A stretch of 64,000 nt of DNA from Chlamydiota bacterium. GTDB lineage: Bacteria; Auribacterota; Tritonobacteria; UBA1439. A program made the translations under genes and the position numbers. Positions 10,023 to 30,168 of this stretch are shown one piece after another. The notes beneath the pieces were generated by a model that was not told the DNA's origin, made no database searches, and saw only the letters and a program-made list of their open reading frames with translations. Where the stretch lies: contig JAAYCL010000036.1 in NCBI GenBank assembly GCA_012729785.1, positions 59,174 to 123,173 of the forward strand. Direction: 5' to 3'. The stretch's first letter is position 1; every line of letters begins with the position of its first letter.

Positions 10023-10033
10023 CGGGGGCATCG

Positions 10034-10042
10034 TGGTATACT
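10034..10042 (+). promoter_or_regulatory. Putative extended -10 element TGgTATACT upstream of rfbC
   Basis: TGn plus TATACT at 10034-10042, 38 nt upstream of the rfbC ATG, followed by an AAAGGAG RBS. Confidence 0.3.
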
Positions 10043-10079
10043 CGTCCGGTGGCGCCGAAAATCGAAAGGAGTCGGAACG

Positions 10080-10535
10080 ATGATCGAGGGAGTGAAGGTC
10101 AAGGAACTCACGCCCCACGCGGACGAGCGGGGGTACCTCCAGGAGATTGTGCGGAAAGACGAAAAGATCTTCGAGGAGTTCGCCCAGCTGTACGTGTCCC
10201 TGAACTACCCCGGCGTCGTGCGCGCCTGGCACTACCACCGGAAGCAGAACGACTTCATGACCGTCGTCAAGGGTATGGCGAAGATCGTCCTCTACGACGC
10301 GAGGGAGGGGTCGCCGACGCGCGGGGAGATCGACGAGTTCTTCGTGGGGGAGCACCACCGGATACTCATCCGCATCCCCGCGATGGTGATGCACGGCTAC
10401 AAGACGATCGGCGTTGAGCCGTGCCTGCTGATCAATCTGCCCACCCGCTGCTACGATCCGAACGACCCGGACGAGTTCAGGGTGCCCCCGCACGACAACG
10501 ACATCCCGTACGACTGGGCGATCAAGGAGCGCTGA
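10080..10535 (+). CDS. rfbC: dTDP-4-dehydrorhamnose 3,5-epimerase (short cupin form)
   Basis: Cupin RmlC-like motifs (DERGYLQE, WHYHRKQNDFMTVVKG, IPAMVMHGY). It is the first gene of a rfbC-A-B-D array. Confidence 0.8.
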   Translation: MIEGVKVKELTPHADERGYLQEIVRKDEKIFEEFAQLYVSLNYPGVVRAWHYHRKQNDFMTVVKGMAKIVLYDAREGSPTRGEIDEFFVGEHHRILIRIPAMVMHGYKTIGVEPCLLINLPTRCYDPNDPDEFRVPPHDNDIPYDWAIKER

Positions 10536-10579
10536 GCTCCCCTGTGCGGCCGCCGCCGTAAGGGGCGAAAGGAGGAGAG

Positions 10580-11317
10580 ATGAAGGGCGTCATCCTCGCG
10601 GGGGGTCTCGGCACGCGGCTGCACCCGCTCACCAAGATCACCAACAAGCATCTGCTCCCGATCTACGACAAGCCGATGATCTACTACCCGATACAGACGC
10701 TCGTCAACGCGGGGGTCGAGGACATCCTGGTGGTGACCGGCGGCAACAACGCCGGCGACTTCCTGCGTCTCCTCGGGAACGGGGCCGAGTTCGGCCTGAA
10801 GCGGCTCCAGTACGCCTACCAGGAGAAGGAGGGCGGCATCGCCCAGGCGCTCTCCCTCGCGGAGCATTTCGCGGAGGGGGAGAAGCTGGTGGTGATGCTG
10901 GGGGACAACATCATCGAGGGGAACATCGTCGAAACGGTCGAGGAGTTCTCCCGCCAGGAGAAGGGGGCGAAGATCCTCCTCAAGGAGGTGGACAGCCCGC
11001 AGGAGTACGGGGTCGCCGAGATACGGGACGGCAAGATCGTGGCCATCGTGGAGAAGCCCGCGAAGCCGGTCAGCAACTACGCCGTCATCGGCATCTACCT
11101 CTATGACGCGGCGGTCTTCGACATCGTCAGGACCCTCGAGCCCTCGGGGAGGGGGGAGCTCGAGATCACGGACGTCAACAACGCCTACATCGCCGCGGGG
11201 ACGATGACCTATGGCATCCTGGACGGATGGTGGGCGGACGCGGGGGCCTCGATCGACCGCCTGCTGAAGGTCAATGCGCTGGTCTACGAGAGCGGCGCCA
11301 ACAAGATGGCCCTGTAG
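10580..11317 (+). CDS. rfbA: Glucose-1-phosphate thymidylyltransferase
   Basis: MKGVILAGGLGTRLHPLTKITNKHLLPIYDKPMIYYPI is the canonical RmlA N-terminus. Confidence 0.9.
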   Translation: MKGVILAGGLGTRLHPLTKITNKHLLPIYDKPMIYYPIQTLVNAGVEDILVVTGGNNAGDFLRLLGNGAEFGLKRLQYAYQEKEGGIAQALSLAEHFAEGEKLVVMLGDNIIEGNIVETVEEFSRQEKGAKILLKEVDSPQEYGVAEIRDGKIVAIVEKPAKPVSNYAVIGIYLYDAAVFDIVRTLEPSGRGELEITDVNNAYIAAGTMTYGILDGWWADAGASIDRLLKVNALVYESGANKMAL

Positions 11318-11337
11318 GGCCCCGGGAGGGGATGACG

Positions 11338-12348
11338 ATGAGGATGCTGGTCACGGGGGGGGCGGGGTTCATCGGCTCCAACTTCATCCGCCGCTGCCTC
11401 CGCCGCGGCACCGCGACGGAGCTGGTGAACCTGGACAAGCTCACCTACGCGGGGAACCTCGACAACCTGAAGGAGGTCGCGCGGGACCCGCGCTACCGGT
11501 TCGTCAGGGGCGATATCGCCGACGCGGAACTGGTGAACCGCCTCGCGGCGGAGCGGTTCGACGCGATCGTCAACTTCGCCGCGGAGACGCACGTGGACCG
11601 CTCGATCGGGGACGCGGGCGATTTCATCCGCACGGACGTCTACGGGACGTTCGTGCTGCTGGAGGCGGCGCGCAAACACAGGATCGGGAGGTTCATCCAG
11701 ATCTCGACCGACGAGGTCTACGGGAGCATCGAGAAGGGGTCGTTCAGGGAGACGGACCCGCTCATGCCCCGCAACCCGTACGCCGCGAGCAAGGCCGGGG
11801 CCGACCGGCTCGCCTACTCGTACTGGGCGACGTACCGCCTCCCGGTGGTCATCACCCGGGCCTCCAACAACTTCGGCCCGTACCAGTACCCCGAGAAGGT
11901 GATCCCGCTCTTCGTCACGAACGCCCTGGACGACATCCCGCTCCCCCTCTACGGCGACGGGATGAACGTCCGGGACTGGCTCTTCGTCGATGACCATTGC
12001 GCCGCGATCGAGTTCCTCCTCGAGAAGGGGGCGGACGGCGAGGTCTACAACATCGGGGGCGGCAACGAGCTCCCCAACGTCGAGCTCACCCGCATCATCC
12101 TCGACTGCCTGGGGAAACCGGCCTCCCTGATCACAAGGGTCAAGGACCGGCAGGGGCACGACCGGCGCTACTCCCTCGACTGCGGCAAGCTGCGGGCGCT
12201 GGGCTGGGCGCCGCGCGCGGGGTTCGCCGAGGCGATCCGCGAGACGGTCGACTGGTACGCGAAGAACGACTGGTGGTGGCGCCCCCTCAAGAGCGGCGAG
12301 TACCTGGACTACTACCGGAGACAGTACGTCGACCGCGAACGATCGTAA
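11338..12348 (+). CDS. rfbB: dTDP-glucose 4,6-dehydratase
   Basis: Starts at LVTGGAGFIGSNF, with a YAASKA active-site Tyr/Lys. Extended short-chain dehydrogenase fold. Alternative ATG starts at 11332 and 11344. Confidence 0.9.
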   Translation: MRMLVTGGAGFIGSNFIRRCLRRGTATELVNLDKLTYAGNLDNLKEVARDPRYRFVRGDIADAELVNRLAAERFDAIVNFAAETHVDRSIGDAGDFIRTDVYGTFVLLEAARKHRIGRFIQISTDEVYGSIEKGSFRETDPLMPRNPYAASKAGADRLAYSYWATYRLPVVITRASNNFGPYQYPEKVIPLFVTNALDDIPLPLYGDGMNVRDWLFVDDHCAAIEFLLEKGADGEVYNIGGGNELPNVELTRIILDCLGKPASLITRVKDRQGHDRRYSLDCGKLRALGWAPRAGFAEAIRETVDWYAKNDWWWRPLKSGEYLDYYRRQYVDRERS

Positions 12349-12376
12349 GCGAGGCGGCGGGGGGGGCGGAAGGGGC

Positions 12377-13264
12377 ATGGCCGCGCGCGGGAAGATGTTG
12401 GTGGTCGGGGCGAACGGGATGCTCGGGCGCGCCCTGATGGAGGCGTGCGCCCGCGGCGGCGACGTCGAGGGCGCCGATCTCCCCGAACTCGACATCACCG
12501 ACGCGGCGGCGACGCGCCGTTTCGTCGAGGCGGCCCGCCCGGCGATCGTCGTCAACGCGGCCGCGATGACCGACGTGGACGGCTGCGAGGCCGATCCCGG
12601 GGCCGCGTTCGCGGTCAACGCCCGCGGGGCCGGCACCCTGGCGGGCGCCTGCCGGGCCGCGGGGGCGCGCCTCGTCCACGTGAGCACCGACTACGTCTTC
12701 GACGGCCTCAAGGGGAGTCCGTACGCAGAGGACGACCCGGTCAATCCGGCGAGCGTCTACGGGAGATCGAAACGCGACGGCGAGGAGGCGGTGCGGCGCG
12801 CCGGCGCCGACTTCCTCATCGTGCGGACCTCGTGGATGTTCGGGGCGCACGGGAAGAACTTCGTGGACACCATCCTGCGGGCCGCGGAGACGCGGCGGGA
12901 GATCGAGGTCGTCGGCGACCAGCGGGGCAGCCCGACCTACGCCCGGGACCTCGCGGGGGCGCTCTGCGGGCTCGCGGCGGCGCGGCGCGCCGGCGTCATC
13001 CATGTCGCCAACAGCGGGGTCTGCTCCTGGTTCGACTACGCGCGGGCGATCCTCGAGATCGCCGGGATCGGCGGCGTCGCCGTGCGGGAGATCACGAGCG
13101 ACCGGCTGAACCGCGCCGCGCCCCGGCCGCCGTGCTCCGCGCTCGACTGCGGGCGCTACGCCGCCTTCGCCGGCGCGCCGATGCGGCACTGGCGCGAGGC
13201 GGTCGCGGAGTATCTGGTTGAAAGGGAGCGCCCGGGCGCGGGCGGTCCCCCGCCGCGGGGGTGA
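12377..13264 (+). CDS. rfbD: dTDP-4-dehydrorhamnose reductase
   Basis: LVVGANGMLG Rossmann fold and a YGRSK catalytic motif. RmlD-like length of 295 aa. Confidence 0.85.
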   Translation: MAARGKMLVVGANGMLGRALMEACARGGDVEGADLPELDITDAAATRRFVEAARPAIVVNAAAMTDVDGCEADPGAAFAVNARGAGTLAGACRAAGARLVHVSTDYVFDGLKGSPYAEDDPVNPASVYGRSKRDGEEAVRRAGADFLIVRTSWMFGAHGKNFVDTILRAAETRREIEVVGDQRGSPTYARDLAGALCGLAAARRAGVIHVANSGVCSWFDYARAILEIAGIGGVAVREITSDRLNRAAPRPPCSALDCGRYAAFAGAPMRHWREAVAEYLVERERPGAGGPPPRG

Positions 13265-13268
13265 GGCG

Positions 13269-13955
13269 ATGGACGGATCGGGCCGTCCCCACTACGCCGG
13301 GCACCGCGCCCGGCTCCGGGAGAGGTTTTTAAGGGCGGGGGGCGCGGGGCTGCAGGAGTACGAGAAGCTGGAGCTCCTCCTCACCTTCGCCGTCCCGCGC
13401 GTCGACGTCAAGCCGATCGCGAAGGCGCTGCTCGCCCGGTTCGGGGGCCTCGCCCAGGTCCTTGACGCCGGGGCGGCGGAACTCGAGTCGGTGAGGGGGA
13501 TGGGCCCCGCCGCGGCGTCGCTCGTTCTGCTCGTCAAGGAGCTGTTCGTGGCCTGCAGCGAGACGAGGATGCGGGGGAGAAACCTCGTCTCCTCCCCGCA
13601 GGCGGCGGTCGACTTCGCCCGGGCCAAGCTCGCGGGCCTGCCCCGGGAACAGTTTTTGGTGCTGCTCCTCAACGCCAAGAACGAGCTGATCGCGCACGAG
13701 GTGATCCAGAAGGGGACGGTGGACCGCGCGGTCGTGTACCCGCGGCTGGTCGTCGAGGCGGCGCTCCAGCGGCACGCCGCGGGCGTCATACTCGTCCACA
13801 ACCACCCCAGCGGCCACCCGGAGCCCTCCGCGGAGGACCGCTCCATCACGAGGGCGGTCGCGGACGCCTGCGGCACCGTGGACGTGCGGGTGCTCGACCA
13901 TCTGGTGGTCGGCAGGGGAGGGCACTTCAGCTTCGCGGAGGAGAACCTGCTCTGA
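13269..13955 (+). CDS. radC: RadC-family JAB-domain protein (UPF0758)
   Basis: Helix-hairpin-helix N-terminus and the JAB/MPN motif VILVHNHPSGHPEPSAEDRSITR. Confidence 0.85.
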   Translation: MDGSGRPHYAGHRARLRERFLRAGGAGLQEYEKLELLLTFAVPRVDVKPIAKALLARFGGLAQVLDAGAAELESVRGMGPAAASLVLLVKELFVACSETRMRGRNLVSSPQAAVDFARAKLAGLPREQFLVLLLNAKNELIAHEVIQKGTVDRAVVYPRLVVEAALQRHAAGVILVHNHPSGHPEPSAEDRSITRAVADACGTVDVRVLDHLVVGRGGHFSFAEENLL

Positions 13956-14095
13956 GGTCTGTGCCGCCGATCGGTGCGGATACGCCCGGGGTGGACAAGA
14001 TGCCGAAGCCGCACGTCACGGATTGCACGCCGGCGCCACGGGAGAAACGTCTCGCCGATCGAACCGGTTGAACCCGTTTCAGGGAGGGGGGAACG

Positions 14096-14269
14096 ATGAT
14101 CGACAAGGAGCTGCTGGAGATACTCGCGTGCCCGGCCTGCAAGGCGGAGGTGAAGCTCGAAGGGGAGAAGATCGTCTGCCTCGGCTGCGGGCGCCGCTAC
14201 CCGATCCGCGACGGCATCCCGATCATGCTGGTCGACGAGGCGGAGACGCCCGGCGCCAAGGAGGGATGA
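14096..14269 (+). CDS. Trm112-family small protein (UPF0434/YcaR-like), 57 aa
   Basis: The translation is MIDKELLEILACPACKAEVKLEGEKIVCLGCGRRYPIRDGIPIMLVDEAETPGAKEG. It has a CPxC...CxxC zinc-ribbon and the conserved P(I/V)xDGIP(I/V)ML motif. An [14 protein letters not shown] lies upstream. The ORF track does not list it because it is under 60 aa; instead an overlapping wrong-frame ORF (14023..14565) is listed. Confidence 0.7.
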   Translation: MIDKELLEILACPACKAEVKLEGEKIVCLGCGRRYPIRDGIPIMLVDEAETPGAKEG

Positions 14270-14270
14270 G

Positions 14271-15473
14271 GTGCCTGCGGCGCCGACTGCCCGGCCCGCG
14301 GGCGAAGCCGCGCCCGTGCTGTTCGTCACCATCAACATGGAGCTCGGCGGGACCGAGCGCCAGCTCTGCGAACTGGCGGCCGGGCTCGATCGCCGGCGCT
14401 TCGCCCCGCGCGTATGCTGCCTGCGCGGCGGGGGGCCGCTCGCCGATACCCTCGCCGCCGCGGGCGTTCCGCTCACCGTCCTCGCCCCGCGCGCCCGTGG
14501 CCGCGCCGGACGGGCGCGGCCGTGGCGGGTCTTTCTGCCGCAGATCCTCGCCCTCTCGAACCTGATGCGGCGGGAACGCATCGCGATCGTCCACGGGCTG
14601 CTGCCGGCCGCCCTGGTGACGGCGGGGTTCGCCGCCCGCCGGGCGGGGGTGCCGGTCCTCGTGACGGGGAGAAGGGGGCTCGGGCGCTACAAGGAGGGGC
14701 GGCCCCTCCTCCGGTTTCTGGAGAATCTGGTGAATCGCTGGGCCGACGCGATCGTCCCCAACTCCGAGGCGGTCCTCCGGGACGTCCTCGCCCGGGAGCG
14801 GATCGTTCCGGAACGGCTCCGCGTCATCTACAACGGGGTGCGGATCCCCTCCTCCCCGCCGCGAGTCGGGCGGCGGGAGATCGCCGGGCGGGAGATCCGG
14901 GGGCCGGTGGTCTGCCTCGTCGCGAATTTCTTTCCCTACAAGGGGCACCTGGATTTTCTCGAGGCGGCGCGGATCGTGCTGGGCTCCTTCCCCGAGACCC
15001 GGTTCGTGCTCGTGGGCGACGGGAGGTTGCGGCAGGCGGTCGAGCGCAGGGCGGCCGAGCCGGACCTCCGCGGGCGCGTCGTTCTCCTCGGTTCCCGCAT
15101 GGACAGCGGGGAGATCATGGCCTCTGCGGACGTGCTCGCGCTCGCCTCGCACCAGGAGGGGTTTCCGAACGTCGTCCTCGAGGCGATGGCGCGGGCGAAA
15201 CCGGTGGTCGCGACGCGGGTCGGGGGGGTCCCCGAGGCGGTGGAGGAGGGCGGCACCGGCCTCCTCGTCCCCCCCCGCGACCCGCCCGCGATGGCCGCCG
15301 CGCTCGTCCGGCTGATCGGGAACCCGGAGGAGGCCGCCGGGATGGGGCGGCGGGGGCTCGCCCGCGCGCGGACGCTGTTCAGCGTCGAGCGGATGGTCCT
15401 GGCGCACGAGGAACTGTACGGGGAGCTGCTGAAGCGGAAGACGTCGGACGGAAGTCGTCTCCCGAGAAACTAG
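14271..15473 (+). CDS. Glycosyltransferase family 4 (GT-B fold)
   Basis: The C-terminal domain carries the GT4 EX7E signature (HQEGFPNVVLEAMARAKPVVATRVGGVPE). GTG start 1 nt after the Trm112-like stop. Confidence 0.8.
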   Translation: MPAAPTARPAGEAAPVLFVTINMELGGTERQLCELAAGLDRRRFAPRVCCLRGGGPLADTLAAAGVPLTVLAPRARGRAGRARPWRVFLPQILALSNLMRRERIAIVHGLLPAALVTAGFAARRAGVPVLVTGRRGLGRYKEGRPLLRFLENLVNRWADAIVPNSEAVLRDVLARERIVPERLRVIYNGVRIPSSPPRVGRREIAGREIRGPVVCLVANFFPYKGHLDFLEAARIVLGSFPETRFVLVGDGRLRQAVERRAAEPDLRGRVVLLGSRMDSGEIMASADVLALASHQEGFPNVVLEAMARAKPVVATRVGGVPEAVEEGGTGLLVPPRDPPAMAAALVRLIGNPEEAAGMGRRGLARARTLFSVERMVLAHEELYGELLKRKTSDGSRLPRN

Positions 15474-15493
15474 AAACGAGGAACGGTATTCAC

Positions 15494-17383
15494 GTGTGCG
15501 GAATCTGCGGGATCGTCTACGGCGACCGGGAGAGGGCGGTCGATCGCGCCACGCTCGAGGCGATGACGCGCCTGATGGCGCACCGCGGCCCCGACGGCGA
15601 GGGCTTTCACCTCGACGGCCCGGTGGGCCTCGGGCACCGGCGCCTGAGCGTCATCGACGTCGAGGGCGGCGTCCAGCCGATGACGAACGAGGACGGCACG
15701 CTCTGGCTGGTCTACAACGGGGAGATCTACAACTTCCGGGAGCTCACCGAGGAACTGAAGGCCGGCGGGCACCGCTTCCGCACCCGCTGCGACACGGAGG
15801 TGATCCTCCATCTGTACGAGGAGCATGGCACCGGGTGCCTGGAGCGGCTCCGCGGGATGTTCTCGTTCGCCCTCTGGGACGGGCGTCGTCGTCGTCTCTT
15901 CTGCGCCCGGGACCGTCTCGGCGTCAAGCCGTTCTTCTATCGGCACGCGGGGAGCGACTTCATCTTCGCCTCGGGCCCCGCGCCGATCCTCAGCCATCCC
16001 GGCGTCGAGCGCCGCGTAGACCTCGAGGCGCTCGACCTCTATTTGACCTACCAGTACGTCCCCGCGCCGTTCTCGATCTTCGCCCGGATGCACAAGCTCC
16101 CCCCCGCGCATTTCCTCGTGCTCGAGAACGGCAACGTCACGGTCGAGCGGTACTGGGAGGCGAACCCGGAGCGCCCCCTCGAGATCGGCTACGACGAGGC
16201 GCGGGCGCGCCTGCGTGATCTCCTCGTCGAGGCGACCCGCCTCCGGCTCGTCAGCGACGTGCCGCTGGGGGCGTTTCTGAGCGGGGGGATCGACTCGAGC
16301 ATCGTGGTCGCCCTGATGAGCCGGGAGGGGGGCGCGCAGGTCAAGACCTTCTCGATCGGCTTCGACGACGAGCGCTACAACGAGCTCCCCTACGCCCGGA
16401 TGGTCGCGAAGCGGTACGGCACCGACCACCATGAGCTCATCGTGAAACCCGACGCCGTCGGCCTCCTCCCGAAGCTTGTCCGGCACTACGGCGAGCCGTT
16501 CGCGGACTCCTCCGCGCTCCCGACCTACCACGTCGCCAGGATGAGCCGCCGCGAGGTCACGGTGGCCTTGAACGGCGACGCGGGCGACGAGCTGTTCGCC
16601 GGCTACGACCGATACCGCGCCTTCTCCCTCGCCGGCCGGATGGGGGCCATACCGGGCGCCGCGCCGCTCGGACGGACGCTCGCCCGGTTTCTCGCCGGCG
16701 CACCGCGCGACAGCCTCCGGGACCGCGCGCGGCGGTTCGCCGAGTCGTTCGGCCTCCCGGGGCCCGCCCGGTACCTGCGCTATGTGGCCTACTTCGGAGA
16801 GGAGGAGAAGGCCCGACTCTACGCGCCGCGGTTCCGGGAGGCGGCGGGCGCCTTCGACGCCCCCGGCCAGATTCGCCGTATCTACGAGGCGTGCCGGATA
16901 CACGACGAGACCGCCCGGCTCCTCTTCACCGACCTGTGCAGCTACCTCCCCGGCGATCTCCTGGTGAAGGTGGACATCGCCACGATGGCGGTCTCCCTCG
17001 AGGCCCGGTCCCCGTTCCTCGACCATCGCCTCGTCGAATTCGCCGCCGCGCTCCCCACGCGGTGGAAAATCTCGGGCGGGGAGGGGAAGCGGATCCTCCG
17101 TGACGCCTGCGCGGATCTGCTGCCTGGGGAGATCCTCCGCCGCGGGAAGCAGGGATTCGGCGTTCCGATCAGCCGCTGGTTCCGCGGCGAGCTCGGCGAA
17201 TATCTCCGGGAGATTCTGCTCGACCCCTCCAGCCTCGGGCGCGGCTACTTCGATCCGGCCCGCGTGCGGGAGCTTGTCGACCATCACCAGCGCGGGTTCC
17301 GCGACCACAGCTACCGGCTCTGGGCCCTCCTGGCGCTCGAGCTGTGGCACCGCGAGTTCATCGACGGCGGGGGGGGCGCGTGA
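15494..17383 (+). CDS. asnB: Asparagine synthetase (glutamine-hydrolysing) family amidotransferase, AsnB/WbpS-like
   Basis: The N-terminus is (M)CGIVG. The Ntn glutaminase domain is followed by a PP-loop (SGGIDSS). 629 aa. GTG start after an AGGA RBS. Confidence 0.9.
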   Translation: MCGICGIVYGDRERAVDRATLEAMTRLMAHRGPDGEGFHLDGPVGLGHRRLSVIDVEGGVQPMTNEDGTLWLVYNGEIYNFRELTEELKAGGHRFRTRCDTEVILHLYEEHGTGCLERLRGMFSFALWDGRRRRLFCARDRLGVKPFFYRHAGSDFIFASGPAPILSHPGVERRVDLEALDLYLTYQYVPAPFSIFARMHKLPPAHFLVLENGNVTVERYWEANPERPLEIGYDEARARLRDLLVEATRLRLVSDVPLGAFLSGGIDSSIVVALMSREGGAQVKTFSIGFDDERYNELPYARMVAKRYGTDHHELIVKPDAVGLLPKLVRHYGEPFADSSALPTYHVARMSRREVTVALNGDAGDELFAGYDRYRAFSLAGRMGAIPGAAPLGRTLARFLAGAPRDSLRDRARRFAESFGLPGPARYLRYVAYFGEEEKARLYAPRFREAAGAFDAPGQIRRIYEACRIHDETARLLFTDLCSYLPGDLLVKVDIATMAVSLEARSPFLDHRLVEFAAALPTRWKISGGEGKRILRDACADLLPGEILRRGKQGFGVPISRWFRGELGEYLREILLDPSSLGRGYFDPARVRELVDHHQRGFRDHSYRLWALLALELWHREFIDGGGGA

Positions 17384-18558
17384 ACCCCCGCCCGGCCAGG
17401 ATCCTCCGGATCATCACCCGTTTGAATATCGGGGGCCCGTCGATCAACGCCATCGCACTGAGCGCCGGCCTCCCCCGGGACAGGTTCGAGACCGTGCTCG
17501 TCTGCGGCCGGCCGGGCGTGGCGGAGGGGAACCTGGCGTCCCGGGCGCGGGAGCGCGGGATACGGCTGATCGAGATCCGCTCCCTGCGGCGCGATCCCTC
17601 GCCCGTGGCGGACGCCGCCGCGCTGGCCCGGCTCATCGAGATCGTCCGCCGCGAGAGGCCCGACATCGTCCACACGCATCTCGCCAAGGCCGGCGCGCTC
17701 GGCCGCATTGCCGCGAAAACCGTCCCGGGCATCCGGACCGTCCACACCTTCCACGGGCACGTCTTCAGCGGCTACTTCACCCCCGCACGCACGCGAATCT
17801 TCCTCGCCGTCGAACGGCTGCTGGCGCGTGGCACGGACAAGATCATCGCCCTCTCGGAGGCCCAGCGGGCCGAGCTCGTCGGCGCCTGCCGCATCGGCCG
17901 ACCCGGGCAGTACGCGGTCATTCCGCTGGGGCTCGACCTCGAACGGTTCGCGGCGAGCCGGGCCCTCCGGGGCTCCCTGCGCAGGGAGCTCGGCCTGGAG
18001 CCGGAGGCGTCCGTGATCACGCTGGCGGGGCGCCTTGCGCCGGTCAAGGACCACCGTCTCTTTCTCGCCGCGGCGCGCCTCGTCCTCGCGGCGCGGCCGC
18101 GGGCGGTCTTCCTCGTCGTCGGCGACGGCGAGGAGCGGCCGTCGCTCGAGCGGGAGGCGCGCACGAGCGGGCTCGCGGACGCGGTGCGGTTCACCGGCTG
18201 GCGCGACGACCTCGACCGCGTCTACGCGGACTCCGACCTGGTGGTCCTCACCTCGCGGAACGAGGGGACGCCGGTCAGCCTGATCGAGGCGTCCGCGGCG
18301 GGGCGCCCGATCGTCGCGACGGCGGTCGGCGGCGTCGGGGACGTCGTGCGGGACGGCGGGAGCGGCCTCCTCGCCGCCGGCCGCGACCCGGCGGAGATCG
18401 CCGCCCTGATCCTGCGGCTCCTCGACGACCCCGCGCGCGCGGCCGCGATGGGGGAGGAGGGGAGGAGGTTCGTCCTCGAGCGGTTCACGAGCGCGAGGCT
18501 CGTCCGCGACGTTGGGGAGCTGTACGGGCGCCTCCTGGAGGAAGGGGGTGCGGGGTGA
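17380..18558 (+). CDS. Glycosyltransferase family 4 (GT-B fold)
   Basis: GTGA overlap with the asnB stop. The EX7E region is SRNEGTPVSLIEASAAGRPIVATAVGGVGDVV. Confidence 0.8.
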   Translation: MNPRPARILRIITRLNIGGPSINAIALSAGLPRDRFETVLVCGRPGVAEGNLASRARERGIRLIEIRSLRRDPSPVADAAALARLIEIVRRERPDIVHTHLAKAGALGRIAAKTVPGIRTVHTFHGHVFSGYFTPARTRIFLAVERLLARGTDKIIALSEAQRAELVGACRIGRPGQYAVIPLGLDLERFAASRALRGSLRRELGLEPEASVITLAGRLAPVKDHRLFLAAARLVLAARPRAVFLVVGDGEERPSLEREARTSGLADAVRFTGWRDDLDRVYADSDLVVLTSRNEGTPVSLIEASAAGRPIVATAVGGVGDVVRDGGSGLLAAGRDPAEIAALILRLLDDPARAAAMGEEGRRFVLERFTSARLVRDVGELYGRLLEEGGAG

Positions 18559-19361
18559 GCGAAACGGAGACGGCGTTCGAGTTCGGGCGGAACTGGGAGC
18601 GGTTCGTCGCGCGCGCCCTCGACGACGGGCGGATCGACATCGCGCGCCGGCATATCCTGGAGTTCCTCGAACTGCCGGACCTCCGCGGCCGTTCGTTCAT
18701 CGACGTCGGGTGCGGGAGCGGGCTCTCCTCGCGCGCCGCCCTCGACGCGGGGGCGGCGAGGATCATAAGCTTCGATTGCGATCCCGATTCGGTGCGCGCA
18801 ACCGAACGGGTGCGGGAAATGAGCGGGAACCCGCCGCACTGGGCCGTGGTGCGCGGCTCCGTCCTCGACGACGCGTTCATCGCCTCGCTCGGCCGCGCGG
18901 ATATCGTCTACGCCTGGGGGGTGCTCCACCACACCGGCCGGATGTGGGACGCCGTCGAGCGCGCATCCCGGCTCGTCGCCGACGGCGGGCTGTTCTACCT
19001 CGCGCTCTACACCACGACCCCGCAGTCGACGCACTGGGTACGGGTGAAGAAACGGTATAACGCGGCCTCGCCGGCGCGCAGGCGGCTCATGGAGGCCGCG
19101 TATTTCCTGCGCCACACCTGCGCGTCCAACCTTGTGCGCGGGAAAAGCCCCCTCGCCTTCATCCGACACTACCGGAGGTCGCGCGGGATGTCGTACCTGA
19201 CGGACGTGCGGGACTGGCTGGGGGGGTGGCCGTACGAGGATGCGGAGATCGGGGAGGTGCTGCATTTCTGCAACAGGAAACTCGGCCTCGAGCTGCGCAA
19301 CATCCGGACCGGCGAGGCCAATACCGAGTACCTGTTCAAAGGCTCCATGGCGGAAGGATAG
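18555..19361 (+). CDS. Class I SAM-dependent methyltransferase
   Basis: Motif I FIDVGCGSGLSS. GTGA overlap with the upstream GT4. Confidence 0.7.
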   Translation: MSETETAFEFGRNWERFVARALDDGRIDIARRHILEFLELPDLRGRSFIDVGCGSGLSSRAALDAGAARIISFDCDPDSVRATERVREMSGNPPHWAVVRGSVLDDAFIASLGRADIVYAWGVLHHTGRMWDAVERASRLVADGGLFYLALYTTTPQSTHWVRVKKRYNAASPARRRLMEAAYFLRHTCASNLVRGKSPLAFIRHYRRSRGMSYLTDVRDWLGGWPYEDAEIGEVLHFCNRKLGLELRNIRTGEANTEYLFKGSMAEG

Positions 19362-19368
19362 GATCGAA

Positions 19369-20949
19369 ATGGCGACAGGGGCGGTGCGCGCGTTGTGCCT
19401 GGGGCTGCTGATCGTCTTCGCGACGCTCCCCGCGCTCGTCTGCTACCGAACGCTCCCCGGCCGGGATTCAGGCGGGGCGCTCTACGCGGGGTGGCGGATC
19501 CTCCAGGGGGACGTTCTCTACCGGGACGCGTGGGACCACAAGGCGCCCGCGATCTATTGCATCAACGCGCTCGGCCTCCTCCTCGGCGGGGGCTCGACCT
19601 GGGGCGTCGCGGGCCTCGAGCTGCTCCTCCTCCTCGCGGCGGCGATGCTGGGCTGGTCCGCGCTCCGGGATGCGTTCGGCGCGGCGCCGGCGTTCTTCGC
19701 CACGGTCGCGTGGATCTTCACCCTCTCCCTCGTGCACGACGGCGGAAACCTCCCCGAGGGGTACGCGCTCCCGCTGCAGTTCGCGGCGCTGTATCTTTTC
19801 GCCCGATCAGACCCCGCGGCCGGCTTCTCGGCGAGGGGAATGCTGATCGGCGCGTCGGGCGGCCTCGCCTTCTGCATCAGGCCGAACCTCGCGGGGATCT
19901 GGTGCGCGATCCTCCTCTGCGTCGCGCTGCGCGCGTTTCGACGGGGACGGGTGCGCCCGGGCGCCGCCGCGGCCGTTCTGGCCGGCGGGGCGCTGACGCT
20001 CCTCCCGTTCGCCCTCTGTCTGGCCGCCCGCGGCGCGCTCCCCGACGCGCTGGAGGCGGTCTTCGTCTACAACCGCGCGTACGCGGCCGCGACGATGCGC
20101 GACCGTCTCGCGGCGCTCGCCAGGGGGTGGCGACTGATGCGGGTGTCGGGGCTGTCCCTCACCGCGCTGCTGGGCTGGTGCGGCGGGTGCGTGTTCCTGC
20201 GCGGCGGCGGGGCGGGGGAGGGGACGCGGGGCGCGCTCGTGCAGTGCGCGGTCGTCGCCTTTCCGATCGAACTCGCGGCCGCGTCCGTCTCGGGGCGCGC
20301 GTATCCGCACTACTACATGGCGTGGCTGCCTGTCTTCGCGGTGCTCTCCGGCTTCCTCGCCTACGCCGTGCTCCGCGCCATCCCCCTCCGGTTCGCCGCC
20401 TCGGGCGGGGAGGCGGCCGGCGCGTACCGCGTCCGGGGCCTCGCGCTTTTCGCCCTCCTCGCGGTGATGGCGGGCGGGCCGGTCCATGCGCCGGCGCGGC
20501 GGATCGCCCTGTTTCGTTCCGCGCCGGAGACGGCGGCGAAGAGGACGGCGGTCGACTACCTGCGCACGCACACCGGGCCGGATGAGACGGTGCTCGTCTG
20601 GGGAGCGGAGCCGTCGGTCAATTTCCTCTCGAGGAGGAAATCGCCCTCCAGATATTCGTTCCAGTACCCGCTGTATACGAACGGGTACCGGAACGCGGCG
20701 GCGGCGGCGGAGACGTTCCTGGCCGAGCTCTCCTCCCGCCCCCCGGCGGTCGTCATCGACACCTCCGCCACCAATCTCCTGGTCCCCCCCCTTGACCCGG
20801 CGTCGAGGAGGAGACGGCGCCTGCCGTCCGCCTTCGATCCCCTCCCTCCCGCAATGGGGAATCTGTTCGACCTCCTCGCCGCCCGGTATCGCCGCGTGGA
20901 CGGCACGGGGGTACTGCACTGGGCGGTCTACCGGCAGGCGGGGCGCTGA
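19369..20949 (+). CDS. PMT_2/ArnT-like GT-C membrane glycosyltransferase (putative polyprenyl-phosphate-sugar dependent)
   Basis: Multiple transmembrane helices. The first loop carries YRDAWDHKAPAIY (the DxKPP-like PMT_2 motif). 526 aa. Confidence 0.6.
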   Translation: MATGAVRALCLGLLIVFATLPALVCYRTLPGRDSGGALYAGWRILQGDVLYRDAWDHKAPAIYCINALGLLLGGGSTWGVAGLELLLLLAAAMLGWSALRDAFGAAPAFFATVAWIFTLSLVHDGGNLPEGYALPLQFAALYLFARSDPAAGFSARGMLIGASGGLAFCIRPNLAGIWCAILLCVALRAFRRGRVRPGAAAAVLAGGALTLLPFALCLAARGALPDALEAVFVYNRAYAAATMRDRLAALARGWRLMRVSGLSLTALLGWCGGCVFLRGGGAGEGTRGALVQCAVVAFPIELAAASVSGRAYPHYYMAWLPVFAVLSGFLAYAVLRAIPLRFAASGGEAAGAYRVRGLALFALLAVMAGGPVHAPARRIALFRSAPETAAKRTAVDYLRTHTGPDETVLVWGAEPSVNFLSRRKSPSRYSFQYPLYTNGYRNAAAAAETFLAELSSRPPAVVIDTSATNLLVPPLDPASRRRRRLPSAFDPLPPAMGNLFDLLAARYRRVDGTGVLHWAVYRQAGR

Positions 20950-21025
20950 AGCGTTCCGCGTCGCCCCTCCGGCGCGCGCGATCGGTATTTACACGGGGCG
21001 CTTCGGCCGTTACACTGGTGCCGCG

Positions 21026-22138
21026 ATGTGGGCCGCCGTCTACCTTTACCTGTTCGTCTCCGCGCTCTTTTTGAGCCTGCTCCTCACGCCGCTCGCGCGG
21101 CGCGCGGCGCTCCGGGCCGGGATGGTGGACGTCCCCGGCGCGAGGAAGGCGCACCGCAGGCCGACGCCCCTCCTCGGCGGCCTCGCGATCTTCGCCGCCG
21201 TCGCCCTCGTCATCCTCCTCAACGCCGCCCTCGCCTTTCTCGCCTCCCGCGGCGGCCCGCTCGCGGCGCGGGTCCCCGCCGGCCTCTCGCCGTACCTCGC
21301 GGGCGCCCTCTCGGCCTTCCCGAGGCTGGCGGCGATCCTCCTCGGCGGACTCATCGTCCTCCTGCTCGGCATCCGCGACGACGCGGTCGACCTCCCGCCC
21401 GGCCGCAAGCTTCTCGGGCAGCTGTTCGTGGCGGTCTCGATGGCCGCCCTCGGCGTGCGTATCACCCTCTTCATCCCGAGCGCTTTCGTCGGGGCGGTCG
21501 TCACGGTCGCCTGGATCGTAGTCGTCGTCAACTCGTTCAACCTGCTCGACAACATGGACGGCCTCTGCGCGGGCGTCGCCCTCATCGCCTCGGCCCTGAT
21601 GGGCGGCATCTCCGCGCTCAACGGCAACTGCTTCATCGCCTCCCTGTTCGCCGTTCTGGCCGGGGCGCTCCTCGGTTTCCTGCGCTACAACTTCCCCCCC
21701 GCCTCGATCTTCATGGGGGACGCGGGGAGCATGTGCATCGGCTACCTGATCGCCGTGCTGAGCGTGATGCAGACCTGGTACCGGCCCGCCGAGGCCGGCC
21801 CGCTCGCCGTGGCGATGCCGCTCGTCATCCTCGCCGTCCCCCTCTACGACACCCTGTCGGTCGTCGGCATCCGTCTCTCGCGCGGGGAGAGCATCTTCCG
21901 GGCCGACCGCCGCCACTTCTCGCACCGCCTCGTCAAGCTCGGGATGAGCGCGCGGGGGGCGGTCCTCTTCGTCTGGCTCGTCTCCCTCTGCACCGGGCTC
22001 TCCGCCTTCTTCCTGCCGCGCGTCGGCTGGAGGGGCGGGGCCGTCGTCTTCGTCCAGGTCGCCATGGTCGTCTCCGTGATCGCCATCCTCGAGTATTTTG
22101 GCGCGGGGAAAAACGGGAACCGGCATGAAGGCGGATAG
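21026..22138 (+). CDS. wecA: Undecaprenyl-phosphate N-acetylhexosamine-1-phosphate transferase, WecA/MraY (PNPT) family
   Basis: NSFNLLDNMDGL and FMGDAGSMCIGY motifs of the polyprenyl-phosphate N-acetylhexosamine-1-phosphate transferase superfamily. About 10 transmembrane helices. Confidence 0.85.
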   Translation: MWAAVYLYLFVSALFLSLLLTPLARRAALRAGMVDVPGARKAHRRPTPLLGGLAIFAAVALVILLNAALAFLASRGGPLAARVPAGLSPYLAGALSAFPRLAAILLGGLIVLLLGIRDDAVDLPPGRKLLGQLFVAVSMAALGVRITLFIPSAFVGAVVTVAWIVVVVNSFNLLDNMDGLCAGVALIASALMGGISALNGNCFIASLFAVLAGALLGFLRYNFPPASIFMGDAGSMCIGYLIAVLSVMQTWYRPAEAGPLAVAMPLVILAVPLYDTLSVVGIRLSRGESIFRADRRHFSHRLVKLGMSARGAVLFVWLVSLCTGLSAFFLPRVGWRGGAVVFVQVAMVVSVIAILEYFGAGKNGNRHEGG

Positions 22139-23153
22139 AACGGCGCCGTATGACGCCTGGCTGCACTGGTACCTGTCCGAGCGGTGCACCCTCAACTGCG
22201 ACTTCTGCAGCTACGTCCCCCCGAGCGGCCTGCCGAAGCCCGTGGCCCCGGTGACGGTGATCGACATACCCGCCCTCCTGCGCACGCTCGAACGCGCCGG
22301 CAGGGTCTTCAAGATAAGCTTCACCGGCGCGGGCGAGCCTTTCCTGGTGCCGAACATCGTGGAGGCGTGCCGACGGCTCACGGAGCGGCACTACGTCGAA
22401 TTCGTCACCAACCTGACCCCCCCCGCGGTCGAGCGATTCGCCTGCACGATCGATCCGGCGCGGGTCACCGTCATCCACGCCTCCCTGCACAGCGCGGCGC
22501 TCGAACAACGCGGCCTGCTGGAGACCTACATCCGCCACTTCCTGCTGCTGAAGGAGAACGGGTTCGCCCTCAGGTGCGCGGAGCTGGCGCATCCGGCGCT
22601 GCTGCGGGGGGTCCCCGCGCTGCGCTCCCGACTCGGGGCGCGGGGGATCGAACTGTCCTTCTTCCCGTTCTTCGGATCGTACCGCGGGAAACGGTACCCG
22701 AACGCCTTCAGCGCCGGGGAGCTGGCGGTGTTCGGCCTCGGCCCCGACGACCTGCGCATCTTCTCCCCCGACGGGCGGTTGTGCAACGCGGGGTACAACG
22801 TCGCCGTGGTCAGGGAGAACGGCGAGATCCGGCCGTGCGACGCGCTCGGGGAGCGGCTTGGGAACATCTACTCGGGCATCCGCTTCAGGAGGGGGCTGCT
22901 GCGCTGCCCGTTCGGCAGGTGCGTCTGCCCGCTGGATGTGTACGACCCGCGCCTGTTCGCCGCGGCGAAGGAGGCGCACTCCTCGGCGCCACTGGGCGCC
23001 CTGCGCGCGTGGGCGGCGGGAAGAGGCGCGGCGATGCGGGACCTGCTCCCCCATGCCGTGAAGCGAGGCGCGCGCCGCGTCGTGCCGGAGCCGGTTCTGG
23101 CGTTCCGGCGCCGCTGGCGGGCGCGGAGGCGAGCGGGGGGCGCGGGTGCATAA
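22125..23153 (+). CDS. Radical SAM domain protein, possibly with a C-terminal auxiliary Cys cluster
   Basis: The N-terminal ERCTLNCDFCSY is the CX3CX2C radical-SAM cluster motif. A C-terminal Cys-rich segment (CNAGYN...RPCDALG...LLRCPFGRCVCPLD) suggests a SPASM/twitch-like second cluster. Its start overlaps the wecA 3' end. Confidence 0.6.
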   Translation: MKADRTAPYDAWLHWYLSERCTLNCDFCSYVPPSGLPKPVAPVTVIDIPALLRTLERAGRVFKISFTGAGEPFLVPNIVEACRRLTERHYVEFVTNLTPPAVERFACTIDPARVTVIHASLHSAALEQRGLLETYIRHFLLLKENGFALRCAELAHPALLRGVPALRSRLGARGIELSFFPFFGSYRGKRYPNAFSAGELAVFGLGPDDLRIFSPDGRLCNAGYNVAVVRENGEIRPCDALGERLGNIYSGIRFRRGLLRCPFGRCVCPLDVYDPRLFAAAKEAHSSAPLGALRAWAAGRGAAMRDLLPHAVKRGARRVVPEPVLAFRRRWRARRRAGGAGA

Positions 23154-25212
23154 TCCCCGTCTCGAGGCGAACCGGTTTCTCGACGCGGCGCGCGTCGCCG
23201 CGGCGCTCCTGCTCGGGGGGCTGCTCGTCGTCCGTCTCCTCTGGACGGGCGTGACCTATCCCGAGAGCGACGCGTTCGTCTCCATCGCGGCCCTCGCGCT
23301 ACTCGCGGCGCTGCTCGCGGCGGTCGGCTGCGCGGGGGGGGAGTGGCGGCTGCGCGCCTCCGCGGACGGGGGCGCCTTCCTCTACCTGCTCGTGCTCGTC
23401 GCCCTCTCCATCGCCGCCCCGCGCCGCTGGCTGGCGCGGGGCGTCCTCCTGCAGGCCGCCGCCTGCACCGCCGCCTACCTCGTCGCCGCCGACGCCGCCG
23501 TCTCCCGCCGCGCGCGCCTCCTCCTCTGCGCCGCCTTCATAACCGGGACGTTGGCCGTCGCCCTCTACGGCCTCTACCAGCATTTTCAAGGATTCGAGGA
23601 GACGCGCCTGGCGTTCGCCGCGGCGGGGGGCGCGCGGGCGGACCAGGACTCCGCGTTCGCGATCCGTCTGCGTTCCGGGGCGGTCTTCTCGACCTTCTTC
23701 TACCCGAACGCGCTCGCGGGGTTTCTCGTCGTGGCGATCCCGTTCGCGGCCTCGATCCCCCTGCTGCGGAGGGAGGATGCGTCGCCGGTCGTATCCGCCG
23801 GCTGCCTCGGCCTCCTCGCCGCGGCGACGGCGGCGTGGGGTTTCCTCCCCGGCCTCCGCGGGAAGCCGCTTCTTTTCGCGGGGCTCTTCCTCGCCGCCTC
23901 CGCCCTCGCCGCGTGCGTGCGCGTTGCGGAGCTGCGGGCGGGAAGGCTTTTGCGCGCCTTCCTCCTGCTTTCCCCGGCGGCCCTGGCCGTGTGGGCCATC
24001 CTCCTCACCGACTCCGAGGGGGCCTGGCTCTCCCTCGCGGCCGCCTGCGCGTTGGGGGCGCTCCTCCTCTCCGGGCGTCTCATCGCCGCCGGGGCGCTGT
24101 TTCTCGCCGTCGCCGTCCTCTTCGCCGCGCTCCTGCTCACGGGGACGCTCCCGGACGGTTTGGCGCGGAGTCTCGACGTGCGCATGGACTACTGGCGCGC
24201 GGCGGCGGCGATCTGGCGGGAGCACCCGCTCGCGGGGCTGGGGCCCGGGACGTTCGCGGGGGCCTATCCCGCCTACAGGCTTCCCGGATCCGAGGAGGGG
24301 CGGATGGCGCACAGCGCCTACCTCGGTCTCGCGGCGGAGACCGGCGCCGCGGGGCTCGCCGCGTTCCTCGCGATGGCGGGGGCGTGGCTCGTCTCCCTGC
24401 ACGCGGGGGCCCGGAAGGGAGAGCCGCTCGCCGCGGCCGCCTTCGTGGCGGTCTGCGCCTTCCTCATGCACAACGCCGGGGATGTGGGCCTTACGGTGCC
24501 GGGGACGACGTTCGCCCTCTGGTACCTCGCCGGTCTCGGGGCCGGCGCGGCGACGCGCCCGGGGGAGCGGAGACGGCTCTCGCGCGCGGCGGGGGTCTCC
24601 CTCGCGGCGCTGCTCCTCGCCGCCGCCGCGGGGGGCGTCGCGCCCCGGGCGCGCGCGGAGATCCGCCGCCTCGCCGCCGAACGTCTCGCCGGCGCGGGGA
24701 GGCGCGCGGAGGCGCTCGCGGAGATGGAGAAGGCGCTCCTGGCGGAGCCCGACAACGCCGACTACTGGCTGCGCAACGCCGCGCTGGAGGCGCACCGGGG
24801 AGGCGACAGGCACGCGCTTCCCTCCTACGCGCGCGCCGCCTCCCTCGGGAGGGGGATCCCGACATACCATCTTCAGCACGCGTTCTGCCTCTGGCGCCTG
24901 TCAAAAGCGGACGCCGATCCCCGACTCGCCGCCGCGGCGATCGCCGAGCTCCAGGAGGCGGTCCGGTGCAACCCGCACGATTTCGACTACCGCCTCCTGC
25001 TGGGGCACTGGCTCGAAATCACCGGACAGGGGGAGGCGTCTCTGATAGAATACCGTCGCGGCCTCGCCCTCGTCGAGACGGCGCGCGCGAAGCCGCACCG
25101 GACGCGCCGCCACGGCCCCGCGGCGATGGAGAGACTGCAGGCGGCAATCATCGCCAAGATCGAGGAGGCGGAGCGGGAGGCGGCGCCGCCTGCCGCGGAG
25201 GGGGAGAGATGA
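23146..25212 (+). CDS. O-antigen ligase/polymerase (Wzy_C) domain membrane protein fused to C-terminal TPR repeats
   Basis: About 12 transmembrane helices. The periplasmic loop [23 protein letters not shown]...[15 protein letters not shown] matches the Wzy_C/O-antigen ligase signature. The C-terminal 200 aa contain TPR-like helices. GTG start overlaps the radical SAM stop. Confidence 0.7.
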
Positions 25213-30167: not shown

Positions 30168-30168
30168 C

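Follow-up and report, generated by a model that had tools for sequence, protein, structure and literature searches.

A Probable Surface-Glycan Assembly Locus of Two Separable Modules in an Uncultivated Auribacterota-Like Bacterium

The 64,000-nucleotide stretch of contig JAAYCL010000036.1 analyzed here (assembly GCA_012729785.1, positions 59,174 to 123,173; hereafter the window) contains nine consecutive plus-strand genes, g1–g9, at positions 14096–25212. This is probably the assembly locus for a surface glycan, of the O-antigen or lipo-oligosaccharide type, of an uncultivated Auribacterota-like bacterium of the Planctomycetes-Verrucomicrobia-Chlamydiae (PVC) superphylum, arranged as two modules at a fixed site before the housekeeping genes aroQ-pepP-accBC. 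Module B, the conserved frame, comprises a WecA/MraY-family initiating transferase (g7), an optional radical S-adenosylmethionine (SAM) enzyme (g8), and a WaaL-fold protein with a C-terminal tetratricopeptide repeat (TPR) domain (g9). Module A is an exchangeable, glycan-specific block encoding a Trm112-like protein (g1), two GT4 glycosyltransferases (g2 and g4), an AsnB-type amidotransferase (g3), a methyltransferase (g5) and a GT-C-fold glycosyltransferase (g6), together with an upstream rml operon. Such a two-module layout is the architecture of O-antigen-type loci.

Gene Structure of the Locus

The GC content of the window is about 70%, and raw lists of its open reading frames (ORFs) are rich in antisense artefacts. 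Genes were called from a sliding frame plot of the GC content at third codon positions (GC3), combined with a start-codon scan. Long antisense ORFs, for example 15470–17350, 19807–20919 and 23299–24879 of the minus strand, were rejected as high-GC artefacts by GC3 frame analysis. The nine genes thus obtained are identical to independent gene calls on a public scaffold with the same sequence (ENA ERZ28614609, scaffold_31, 115.7 kb), and the same locus is present in two further assemblies. Domain assignments were obtained by Pfam and NCBIfam profile searches, and g6 and g9 were additionally subjected to fold comparison. These data confirmed the nine genes, their coordinates and every domain call made in a preliminary description of the window (Table 1).

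The first two genes are separated by 1 nt and the next pair by 20 nt; g3 overlaps g4, and g4 overlaps g5, by 4 nt each, and a gap of 7 nt separates g5 from g6. In module B the overlaps are 14 nt between g7 and g8 and 8 nt between g8 and g9. The preliminary description had given gaps of 1–20 nt or overlaps of 4–14 nt throughout, which holds for all but one junction: the gap between g6 and g7 is 76 nt long, and it turns out to be the boundary between the modules. This gap contains a promoter-like site; three such matches were found in 19 kb, compared with 0.8 expected. Past g9 the coupling continues with overlaps of 4 nt into aroQ, 14 nt into pepP and 4 nt into accB, in line with the reported fusion of the locus to these housekeeping genes. 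Transcription terminators between the locus and aroQ were rejected, as the scan yielded a count no higher than in shuffled sequence. A horizontal-transfer island was likewise rejected: there is no GC anomaly or compositional island, and the sole tRNA gene lies 9 kb downstream.

Related Loci and the Two-Module Organization

The comparison set consisted of about 10 independent related metagenomic loci, to which the window proteins were mapped by tblastn; scans of genomes and metagenomes gave six and four loci, and all synteny statistics rest on these relatives. The closest public proteins are metagenomic, with metagenome-assembled genomes labeled, among others, Candidatus Auribacterota/Aureabacteria and “Chlamydiota bacterium.” No orthologous locus was found in a characterized organism, the kind of counter-example that the preliminary description had foreseen. 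A literature search returned one paper on Auribacterota genomics, which contains no discussion of envelope glycans.

Wherever a relative's contig is long enough to tell, the genes for the WecA-family enzyme and the Wzy_C/TPR protein stand together, directly before aroQ or pepP and accB-accC. As far as the contigs reach, this layout is seen in L001, L008/L011, L009/L024, L010, L014, L020, and L026, and in the longer contigs Asp23, PFK, heptose and thiamine genes come next with their order kept. The genes upstream of this frame differ. The order in L010, L013, and L014 is (rml)-RadC-Trm112-GT4-AsnB-GT4-WecA-Wzy_C, to which L012 adds an insertion of methyltransferase and GT4 genes and a flippase gene of the multidrug/oligosaccharidyl-lipid/polysaccharide (MOP) family. 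L020 and L026 are arranged as AsnB-GT4-MOP flippase-methyltransferase-GT-C-WecA-Wzy_C, and L001 as MOP flippase-methyltransferase-GT4-(membrane protein)-WecA-radical SAM-Wzy_C. In L008, L009, and L024, genes for a deacetylase, Wzx, GT2, PMT_2 or a B12 radical SAM protein, several methyltransferases, GT4 and WecB are followed by WecA-Wzy_C. The window thus has the L020/L026 arrangement without the flippase and with the radical SAM gene added. Modules A and B are adjacent in L010, L012, L013, L014, L020, and L026.

In the closest relative, with 84–92% amino acid identity to the window (WecA, 92%; radical SAM enzyme, 87%; GT-C enzyme, 84%), the GT-C end of module A and the WecA-radical SAM pair are located on different contigs of the same sample (L002 and L023) with unrelated neighbors. 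One contig reads pheA-aldolase-dehydroquinate synthase-tyrA-WecA-radical SAM, and the other a possible methyltransferase gene, GT-C and OTCase genes. Moreover, of the nine relatives in which the stretch before WecA could be measured, eight have a non-coding gap of 63–485 nt there, as the window has one of 76 nt. From the separation of the modules in the closest relative, the variable upstream genes and the gap before WecA, we conclude that the locus consists of two separable modules and not, as previously described, of one tightly coupled 11-kb unit.

A side observation concerns the surroundings of the WecA gene in the closest relative. At positions 423–4344 of L002 it is preceded by pheA, a DeoC-type aldolase gene, an archaeal-type dehydroquinate synthase gene (PF01959) and tyrA. 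The glycan frame of this lineage lies amid aromatic amino-acid genes that use alternative early shikimate steps.

The same data could be taken to mean that the modules make different products, a rhamnose-containing amidated glycoconjugate by module A and a housekeeping envelope function by module B, and that their adjacency is an accident of rearrangement. The split in the closest relative, the gap with its promoter-like site before g7 and the very different genes that stand upstream of module B in L008 and L009 all agree with this. However, module A by itself lacks both an initiating transferase and a ligase, the two modules adjoin in at least six independent relatives (those listed above), and where module A is replaced, in L001, L008, and L009, other glycan genes adjoin module B. 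We therefore consider separate products quite unlikely.

Flippase Genes and the Route of Assembly

The reported lack of Wzx, of a chain-length regulator and of an ABC exporter in the window was borne out: Pfam searches detected no Wzx/MOP, Wzz or Wzm/Wzt protein among the window ORFs scanned, and the flippases were also sought by tblastn. An ABC-transporter pathway (Wzm/Wzt, ABC2_membrane) was rejected, the only ABC pair of the window (24–1460) having an importer-type permease of the BPD_transp_1 family. Neither the window nor any of the related loci examined yielded a separate Wzy polymerase or a Wzz chain-length regulator.

A MOP/Wzx flippase is, however, encoded inside the locus in six relatives (L001, L008, L009, L012, L020, and L026). 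In L020, L026, and L012 its gene lies directly 3′ of the g4 orthologue, and in the first two of these it is inserted between the orthologues of g4 and g5, exactly where these genes overlap by 4 nt in the window. L010, L013, and L014 have a flippase-free locus, like the window. The presence of in-locus flippases in six relatives indicates that the pathway is Wzx-type with a displaced flippase gene rather than a non-classical route, and takes away the chief argument for a departure from the classical schemes. The apparent absence of the flippase thus reflects where its gene lies and not a different mechanism, and the earlier statement that the gene combination does not match the classical pathways gives way to a scheme with Wzx and a WaaL-like ligase.

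The preliminary description had proposed that the nine genes form one self-contained, Wzx-free pathway, using two GT-C enzymes and perhaps the UPF0104 protein encoded upstream. In support of this, genes for a MOP flippase, an ABC exporter or a synthase are missing from the window, three related loci are also flippase-free, and the UPF0104 protein, whose gene abuts the rml operon, exceeds the cutoff of the NCBIfam “flippase-like domain” model (69 versus 43 bits). These points are outweighed by the flippase gene at the g4–g5 junction of the relatives with the same gene order and by the separability of the modules. The upstream ArnT-like gene and the UPF0104 gene are present, as described, but neither could be tied to the locus: the former lies 10 kb off among unrelated genes, behind HAD, dcd, NUDIX and thiD genes, and no UPF0104 link was seen in the relatives examined, whose contigs start at rmlB, rmlC, RadC or further downstream. 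A self-contained Wzx-free pathway is accordingly very improbable.

The WaaL-Fold/TPR Protein

The g9 product scored 63.3 bits with Wzy_C (PF04932; cutoff 31.7 bits) over residues 279–408, and fold comparison revealed the WaaL membrane fold with an extra C-terminal transmembrane helix. The TPR domain occupies approximately residues 500–680; it was not called by Pfam at E ≤ 0.01 and is clear by profile search and fold, with OGT and SPINDLY among its best matches. Residues R346, R378, R386, H389 (HSxYLGLxxExG), H442, and D446 are invariant in 16 orthologues, as are many TPR positions; of these, R346, R378, R386, and H389 are candidate counterparts of the catalytic residues of WaaL. The invariant TPR residues persist across orthologues down to about 40% identity, implying a conserved partner. 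Four helices follow the catalytic loop, and a very basic loop of 10 residues lies ahead of the last helix, from which we infer a periplasmic location for the TPR domain, shared with the catalytic loop.

The divergence of g9 separates a nearer group of relatives (L001, L008, L009, and L024; 60–63% identity to the window) from a more distant one (L010, L012–L014, L020, and L026; 39–50%), and the same two groups are distinguished by g7 (73–78 versus 59–64%) and accC (85–88 versus 79–83%). The module A of the window is common only with the more distant group. Since the divergence of g9 follows that of the housekeeping genes while module A is shared with distant relatives, g9 has evolved along with the genome rather than with the glycan. 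This pattern would suit a ligase whose acceptor is fixed and whose glycan specificity is relaxed, rather than a repeat-unit-specific polymerase.

It bears directly on the possibility that g9 acts as a polymerase, in the Wzy role of a Wzx/Wzy pathway, with the true ligase encoded elsewhere. PF04932 includes polymerases, the matched PDB entry is titled “polysaccharide polymerase/ligase,” and Wzx genes accompany g9 in six relatives. Polymerases are, however, repeat-unit-specific and vary with the glycan genes, whereas g9 is orthologous across differing sets of these. In addition, Wzz was seen in no locus, and the gene to which g9 is coupled is that of the conserved initiating transferase rather than a variable one. 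The polymerase assignment has, in our estimate, only a slim chance of being correct.

The search of 1.84 billion representative proteins retrieved six close full-length clusters of g9 and 686 clusters at E ≤ 1e-10. Many of the latter are proteins of 580–700 amino acids that match residues 270–645 of g9 in one stretch; thus, the Wzy_C-TPR architecture is widespread. A literature search on WaaL or O-antigen ligases with TPR domains yielded nothing relevant, and no characterization of this architecture was found.

The Wzy_C domain is shared by WaaL with the protein O-oligosaccharyltransferases PglL and PilO. An enzyme of the PglL/PilO type is the main alternative candidate for g9; its periplasmic TPR would select proteins, and the locus would serve general protein O-glycosylation. 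The TPR of OGT and SPINDLY picks protein substrates, the TPR residues of g9 are strongly conserved, the wide distribution of the architecture fits such a role, and the lack of Wzz or a separate Wzy in the related loci fits the transfer of short glycans. On the other hand, g9 contains no PglL-specific Pfam domain at E ≤ 0.01, a periplasmic TPR domain is just as characteristic of scaffolds for polysaccharide export, the locus has no linked gene for a candidate glycoprotein, and the ADP-heptose and ArnT-like genes of the window point to lipopolysaccharide (LPS). We regard protein O-glycosylation as unlikely.

A bolder generalization would make the WaaL-fold/TPR proteins, whose co-linear Wzy_C-TPR architecture recurs in hundreds of 50%-identity clusters, a widespread class of periplasmic glycan transferases in which the TPR chooses a protein or other non-LPS acceptor. 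Together with the WecA-family enzyme, they would constitute a core envelope glycosylation machine into which exchangeable glycan modules plug, including a radical SAM sugar modification new for lipid-linked glycans. We find this rather unlikely as a whole. With a ligase acting on a lipid acceptor still preferred, the TPR-fused WaaL-like protein is the part of the locus most worth following up.

The GT-C Enzyme

The assignment of g6 to GT-C enzymes is due to its precomputed Pfam family, PF27757 “Ccs4_N,” and its ArnT-like fold, not to PMT_2, with which it scored 20.6 bits, under the gathering score of 26.1; there was no NCBIfam match. PF27757 is named after pneumococcal Ccs4, whose biochemical function is not known (PMC6177246). 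The g6 protein spans the membrane with some 11 helices and ends in an alpha/beta domain, which we infer to be periplasmic. For its AlphaFold2 model (predicted local distance difference test score, pLDDT, 89) the best Foldseek match was ArnT (5f15; E 6e-8, TM 0.60), and the next 24 matches, including AglB, STT3, PglB, DPY19, ALG12, and AftA, were all GT-C enzymes. Sequence-only detection of ArnT or WaaL in PDB failed, and fold comparison alone worked; at the fold level, the two periplasm-facing enzymes proposed earlier hold, g6 resembling ArnT and g9 resembling WaaL.

Across 25 homologues of g6, D33 of the first periplasmic loop is invariant, D56 is present in at least 90%, and K58 and P60 are conserved. 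In hhalign, the DHKAP motif (D56-H-K58-x-P60) aligns on EKPPL of the window's ArnT-like protein.

The Initiating Transferase and the Radical SAM Enzyme

The product of g7 carries an NLLDNMDGL motif and scored 118 bits with TIGR02380 (wecA), under the cutoff of 326 bits. It is present at the same position in every relative, with 59–92% identity.

The radical SAM enzyme g8 contains a CxxxCxxC motif (C21, C25, and C28) and a GGEP-like GEP motif, both invariant in 22 homologues. In the same set C220, C238, C261, and C266 are invariant and C268 nearly so, forming a SPASM-like pattern, “CNAGYN...G.I.PC...LGN.” PF13186 was matched by one homologue (P0014) and not by g8 itself, and g8 had no NCBIfam family match; weak sequence matches in PDB were CteB, YydG, BtrN, SkfB, and PqqE (E 3e-7 to 1e-5).

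Only the window, L001 and L002 carry this gene, which is absent from L008–L014, L020, and L026; it constitutes an insertion between two genes that elsewhere adjoin directly or overlap (L008 and L010). Homologues with about 45% identity occur in bacteria of the candidate phyla radiation (Parcubacteria), in Omnitrophota and in others, sometimes in large glycan clusters with more radical SAM genes. A conserved link to WecA/WaaL was rejected on the contexts of the distant homologues (L003–L007), where the sole recurrent feature is the glycan clusters. One of these, at positions 1–18600 of the metagenomic contig L005, contains a 46% identical homologue, GT2 and GT4 genes, formyltransferases, WbqC, PIG-L and a further three genes of the radical SAM/SPASM type. 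Radical SAM glycan chemistry may be common in such uncultivated lineages; a literature search on radical SAM/SPASM proteins in O-antigen clusters found nothing relevant.

Module A and Sugar Supply

The rml operon (Table 1), whose presence upstream of the locus agrees with the preliminary description, is found also in L010 and L014, upstream of RadC-Trm112-GT4. A RadC-like JAB-domain gene (13218–13955, plus strand) lies between rmlD and g1 in the window; its place is conserved in L010, L012, L013, and L014.

In the same four relatives an orthologue of g1 accompanies GT4-AsnB-GT4. Activation of the g5 methyltransferase by the Trm112-like protein was rejected, since L010, L013, and L014 carry g1 without a methyltransferase in the locus, and g1 therefore tracks module A rather than the methyltransferase; L012 has a g1 orthologue and a methyltransferase that is not an orthologue of g5. 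Bacterial Trm112/YcaR proteins have no known function (PMC5372719).

The best NCBIfam model for g2 is TIGR03088 (162 bits), with which g4 scored 170 bits, both under the cutoff of 409 bits; orthologues of g2 with 55–62% identity are present in L010, L012–L014, and L020. The amidotransferase g3 scored 643 bits with TIGR03108 (cutoff, 817 bits), retains the N-terminal MCGI with the active-site Cys2 and the SGGIDSS PP-loop, and is 68–72% identical in six relatives. The AsnB-type enzyme WbpS (PGN_1234), to which TIGR03108-type enzymes match, was shown experimentally to be needed for the uronamide of Porphyromonas gingivalis (PMC7468200). By analogy with this precedent, g3 is predicted to convert a uronic acid to a uronamide. 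The enzyme set earlier described as unusual is, taken together, not out of the ordinary: GT4-AsnB-GT4 is a recurrent module modeled by TIGR03088 and TIGR03108, and uronamide formation by an AsnB-type enzyme has its precedent in P. gingivalis (PMC7468200).

Uronic acid for g3 could be supplied by a 549-amino-acid nucleotide-sugar dehydrogenase encoded in the window, which scored 186 bits with TIGR03026 (cutoff, 190 bits) and has UDP-ManNAc dehydrogenase as its best specific model. The methyltransferase g5 is 82% identical in L001 and 67–68% identical in L020 and L026, and in all three its gene lies directly 3′ of the MOP flippase gene.

Proposed Pathway

The gene set fits a glycan linked to undecaprenyl diphosphate (Und-PP) that is extended, amidated and methylated in the cytoplasm and handled in the periplasm, as the preliminary description had suggested. 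Read from gene structure, families, folds, conserved residues and synteny, the pathway would start with g7 transferring N-acetylhexosamine (HexNAc)-1-phosphate onto undecaprenyl phosphate at the cytoplasmic face. The GT4 enzymes g2 and g4 would extend the lipid-linked sugar from donors that probably include L-rhamnose, g3 would amidate a uronic acid carboxylate, as WbpS does, and g5 would methylate a sugar. The clade-specific insertion g8 probably performs a radical modification of the priming sugar or of a nucleotide sugar. A MOP/Wzx flippase presumably encoded elsewhere in the genome would flip the lipid-linked glycan, after which g6 could add a branch from a polyprenyl-phosphate sugar. Finally, g9, whose extra transmembrane helix would put the TPR domain in the periplasm, would transfer the finished glycan from Und-PP to a conserved acceptor, most likely the lipid A-core, with protein as the main alternative.

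Downstream of the locus, genes for ADP-heptose synthesis are represented by rfaE domain II (rfaE_dom_II, 203 bits; cutoff, 181.5 bits) and a GmhA-like protein (180 bits), and the heptose/thiamine gene order (30139–34212) recurs in L008, L009, and L010. Together with the upstream ArnT-like gene, these genes are consistent with an LPS-bearing diderm.

Several observations weigh against an O-antigen or lipo-oligosaccharide pathway of this kind. No lipid A (lpx) genes are in view in the window, tblastn with the flippases of the relatives gave no match in the whole 64 kb, and the window encodes no GT2 polyprenyl-phosphate sugar synthase that would feed g6. The sole candidate source of uronic acid lies 32 kb off and scored just under its family cutoff. 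The scores of g7, g2/g4 and g3 are all under the curated equivalog cutoffs. The placement of the TPR domain is derived from helix counting and the positive-inside rule alone, and sequence and fold do not distinguish among a WaaL ligase, a Wzy polymerase and a PglL O-oligosaccharyltransferase. The relatives are all uncultivated, so no product is known for such loci.

Overall, the system is ordinary in kind and comes from an unstudied phylum; no new assembly route is revealed. It provides a first, internally consistent picture of surface-glycan building in an uncultivated PVC-related phylum: a conserved pair of initiator and ligase among housekeeping genes, with a swappable glycan-specific block in front. 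Three uncharacterized enzyme families, the WaaL-TPR fusions, the Ccs4_N-type GT-C enzymes and the radical SAM/SPASM enzymes of glycan clusters, gain genomic handles from it.

Other Features of the Window

The ArnT-like gene, on the plus strand, is overlain by an 890-amino-acid antisense ORF (1536–4208, minus strand), a high-GC artefact that is coding only in its 3′ part, from 1536 to approximately 2540, where it encodes a Pyr_redox_2 flavoprotein. A 314-amino-acid ORF at 6458–7402 (plus strand) has a strong coding signal (GC3 0.92) and no Pfam or NCBIfam match. The plus-strand region 43824–56897 begins with a sigma-54 two-component pair, consisting of a histidine kinase (43824–45908) and a regulator (46000–47370). 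It continues with a PAP2 phosphatase (47361–48194) and three ORFs of the PF01663 phosphodiesterase family (48245–50356, 50353–52320, and 55590–56897), between which CysD/CysN-like genes are located (53488–55594).

Table 1. Features of the window, with positions counted from its first nucleotide.
Feature	Position	Strand	Description
ArnT-like gene	2598–4238		
UPF0104/LPG_synthase_TM	9036–10022	+	57 nt upstream of rmlC; longest ORF start 8856, public call implies ~9036
dTDP-sugar supply operon	10080–13264	+	rmlC-like, rmlA, rmlB, rmlD
rmlC-like cupin	10080–10535	+	151 aa; PF00908 63 bits; TIGR01221 43 bits, under cutoff of 156
rmlA	10580–11317	+	Pfam support only
rmlB	~11335–12348	+	Pfam support only; longest ORF start 11227
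rmlD	12377–13264	+	TIGR01214 319 bits, over cutoff of 224
g1	14096–14269	+	57-aa Trm112/YcaR-like zinc knuckle (CPAC...CLGC); Trm112p 49.7 bits; first gene of module A
g2	14271–15473	+	GT4; Glyco_trans_1_4 124 bits, Glyco_transf_4 78 bits
g3	15494–17383	+	Glutamine-dependent AsnB-type amidotransferase; Asn_synthase 364 bits, GATase_7 159 bits
g4	17380–18558	+	Second GT4, 392 aa; stop overlaps g5 start by 4 nt
g5	18555–19361	+	Class I SAM-dependent methyltransferase; Methyltransf_12, _23 and _11 matches
g6	19369–20949	+	GT-C-fold membrane glycosyltransferase, PF27757 “Ccs4_N”; last gene of module A
Promoter-like site TTTACA-17-TACACT	20988–21016	+	Inside the 76-nt gap between g6 and g7; sigma-70-like consensus match only
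g7	21026–22138	+	WecA/MraY-family polyprenyl-phosphate HexNAc-1-phosphate transferase; Glycos_transf_4 (PF00953) 112 bits; first gene of module B
g8	22125–23153	+	Radical SAM enzyme with SPASM/twitch-like C-terminal Cys cluster; Radical_SAM PF04055 37.5 bits (cutoff 29.5)
g9	23146–25212	+	WaaL-fold Wzy_C enzyme with C-terminal TPR; stop overlaps aroQ start
GmhA-like gene	30139–30741	+	Heptose gene amid thiE, thiC
rfaE domain II	30771–31280	+	Heptose gene amid thiE, thiC
PfkB kinase	33304–34212	+	Heptose gene amid thiE, thiC
tRNA-Gly(CCC)	34408–34481	+	Single tRNA of the window
Nucleotide-sugar dehydrogenase	57095–58744	+	549 aa

Comparison with Known Systems

BtrN, YydG, SkfB, PqqE, and CteB, radical SAM enzymes of the SPASM/twitch type with sugar or peptide substrates, share with g8 the CxxxCxxC and GGEP-like motifs, and the conserved C-terminal cysteines of g8 have a SPASM-like pattern. 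Unlike these enzymes, g8 belongs to no NCBIfam family, and none of its roughly 45% identical homologues in glycan clusters has been characterized. ArnT (GT83) and other GT-C(A) enzymes, which use polyprenyl-phosphate sugars in the periplasm, resemble g6 in fold, in the invariant Asp of the first loop and in the alignment of D-H-K-x-P on E-K-P-P, whereas g6 is a member of PF27757, falls under the gathering score of PMT_2 and has no partner GT2 synthase nearby.

The GT4-AsnB-GT4 part of module A is similar to that of the XrtA/PEP-CTERM exopolysaccharide systems both in gene order and in the best models for g2/g4 (TIGR03088, 162–170 bits) and g3 (TIGR03108, 643 bits), and g3 shares with WbpS the intact Cys2 and PP-loop. 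Unlike the XrtA/WbpS module, the locus itself has no uronic-acid-forming enzyme. An XrtA/PEP-CTERM system proper was rejected: all scores are under the cutoffs, and no exosortase or PEP-CTERM family is among the Pfam matches of the window ORFs scanned.

The PglL/PilO O-glycosylation systems of Neisseria, Pseudomonas, and Burkholderia have in common with the locus a Wzy_C transferase, short Und-PP-linked glycans built on a HexNAc-type primer and the lack of a polymerase or chain-length regulator. They differ from it in that g9 has a TPR domain, gave no match to a PglL-specific domain and is linked to no acceptor protein.

The Wzx-dependent O-antigen and lipo-oligosaccharide systems with WaaL, found in Enterobacteria and Pseudomonas and initiated by WecA or WbpL, differ from the locus in several respects. 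The window has no Wzy, Wzz or flippase gene; its putative ligase g9 has one more transmembrane helix and, at the C terminus, a conserved TPR domain, adjoins the initiator and is joined to aroQ-pepP-accBC. The common features are a WecA/MraY-family initiator, cytoplasmic GT4 enzymes, a putative dTDP-rhamnose operon, a MOP flippase, encoded within the locus in six relatives, and a variable glycan block at a fixed site between conserved genes.

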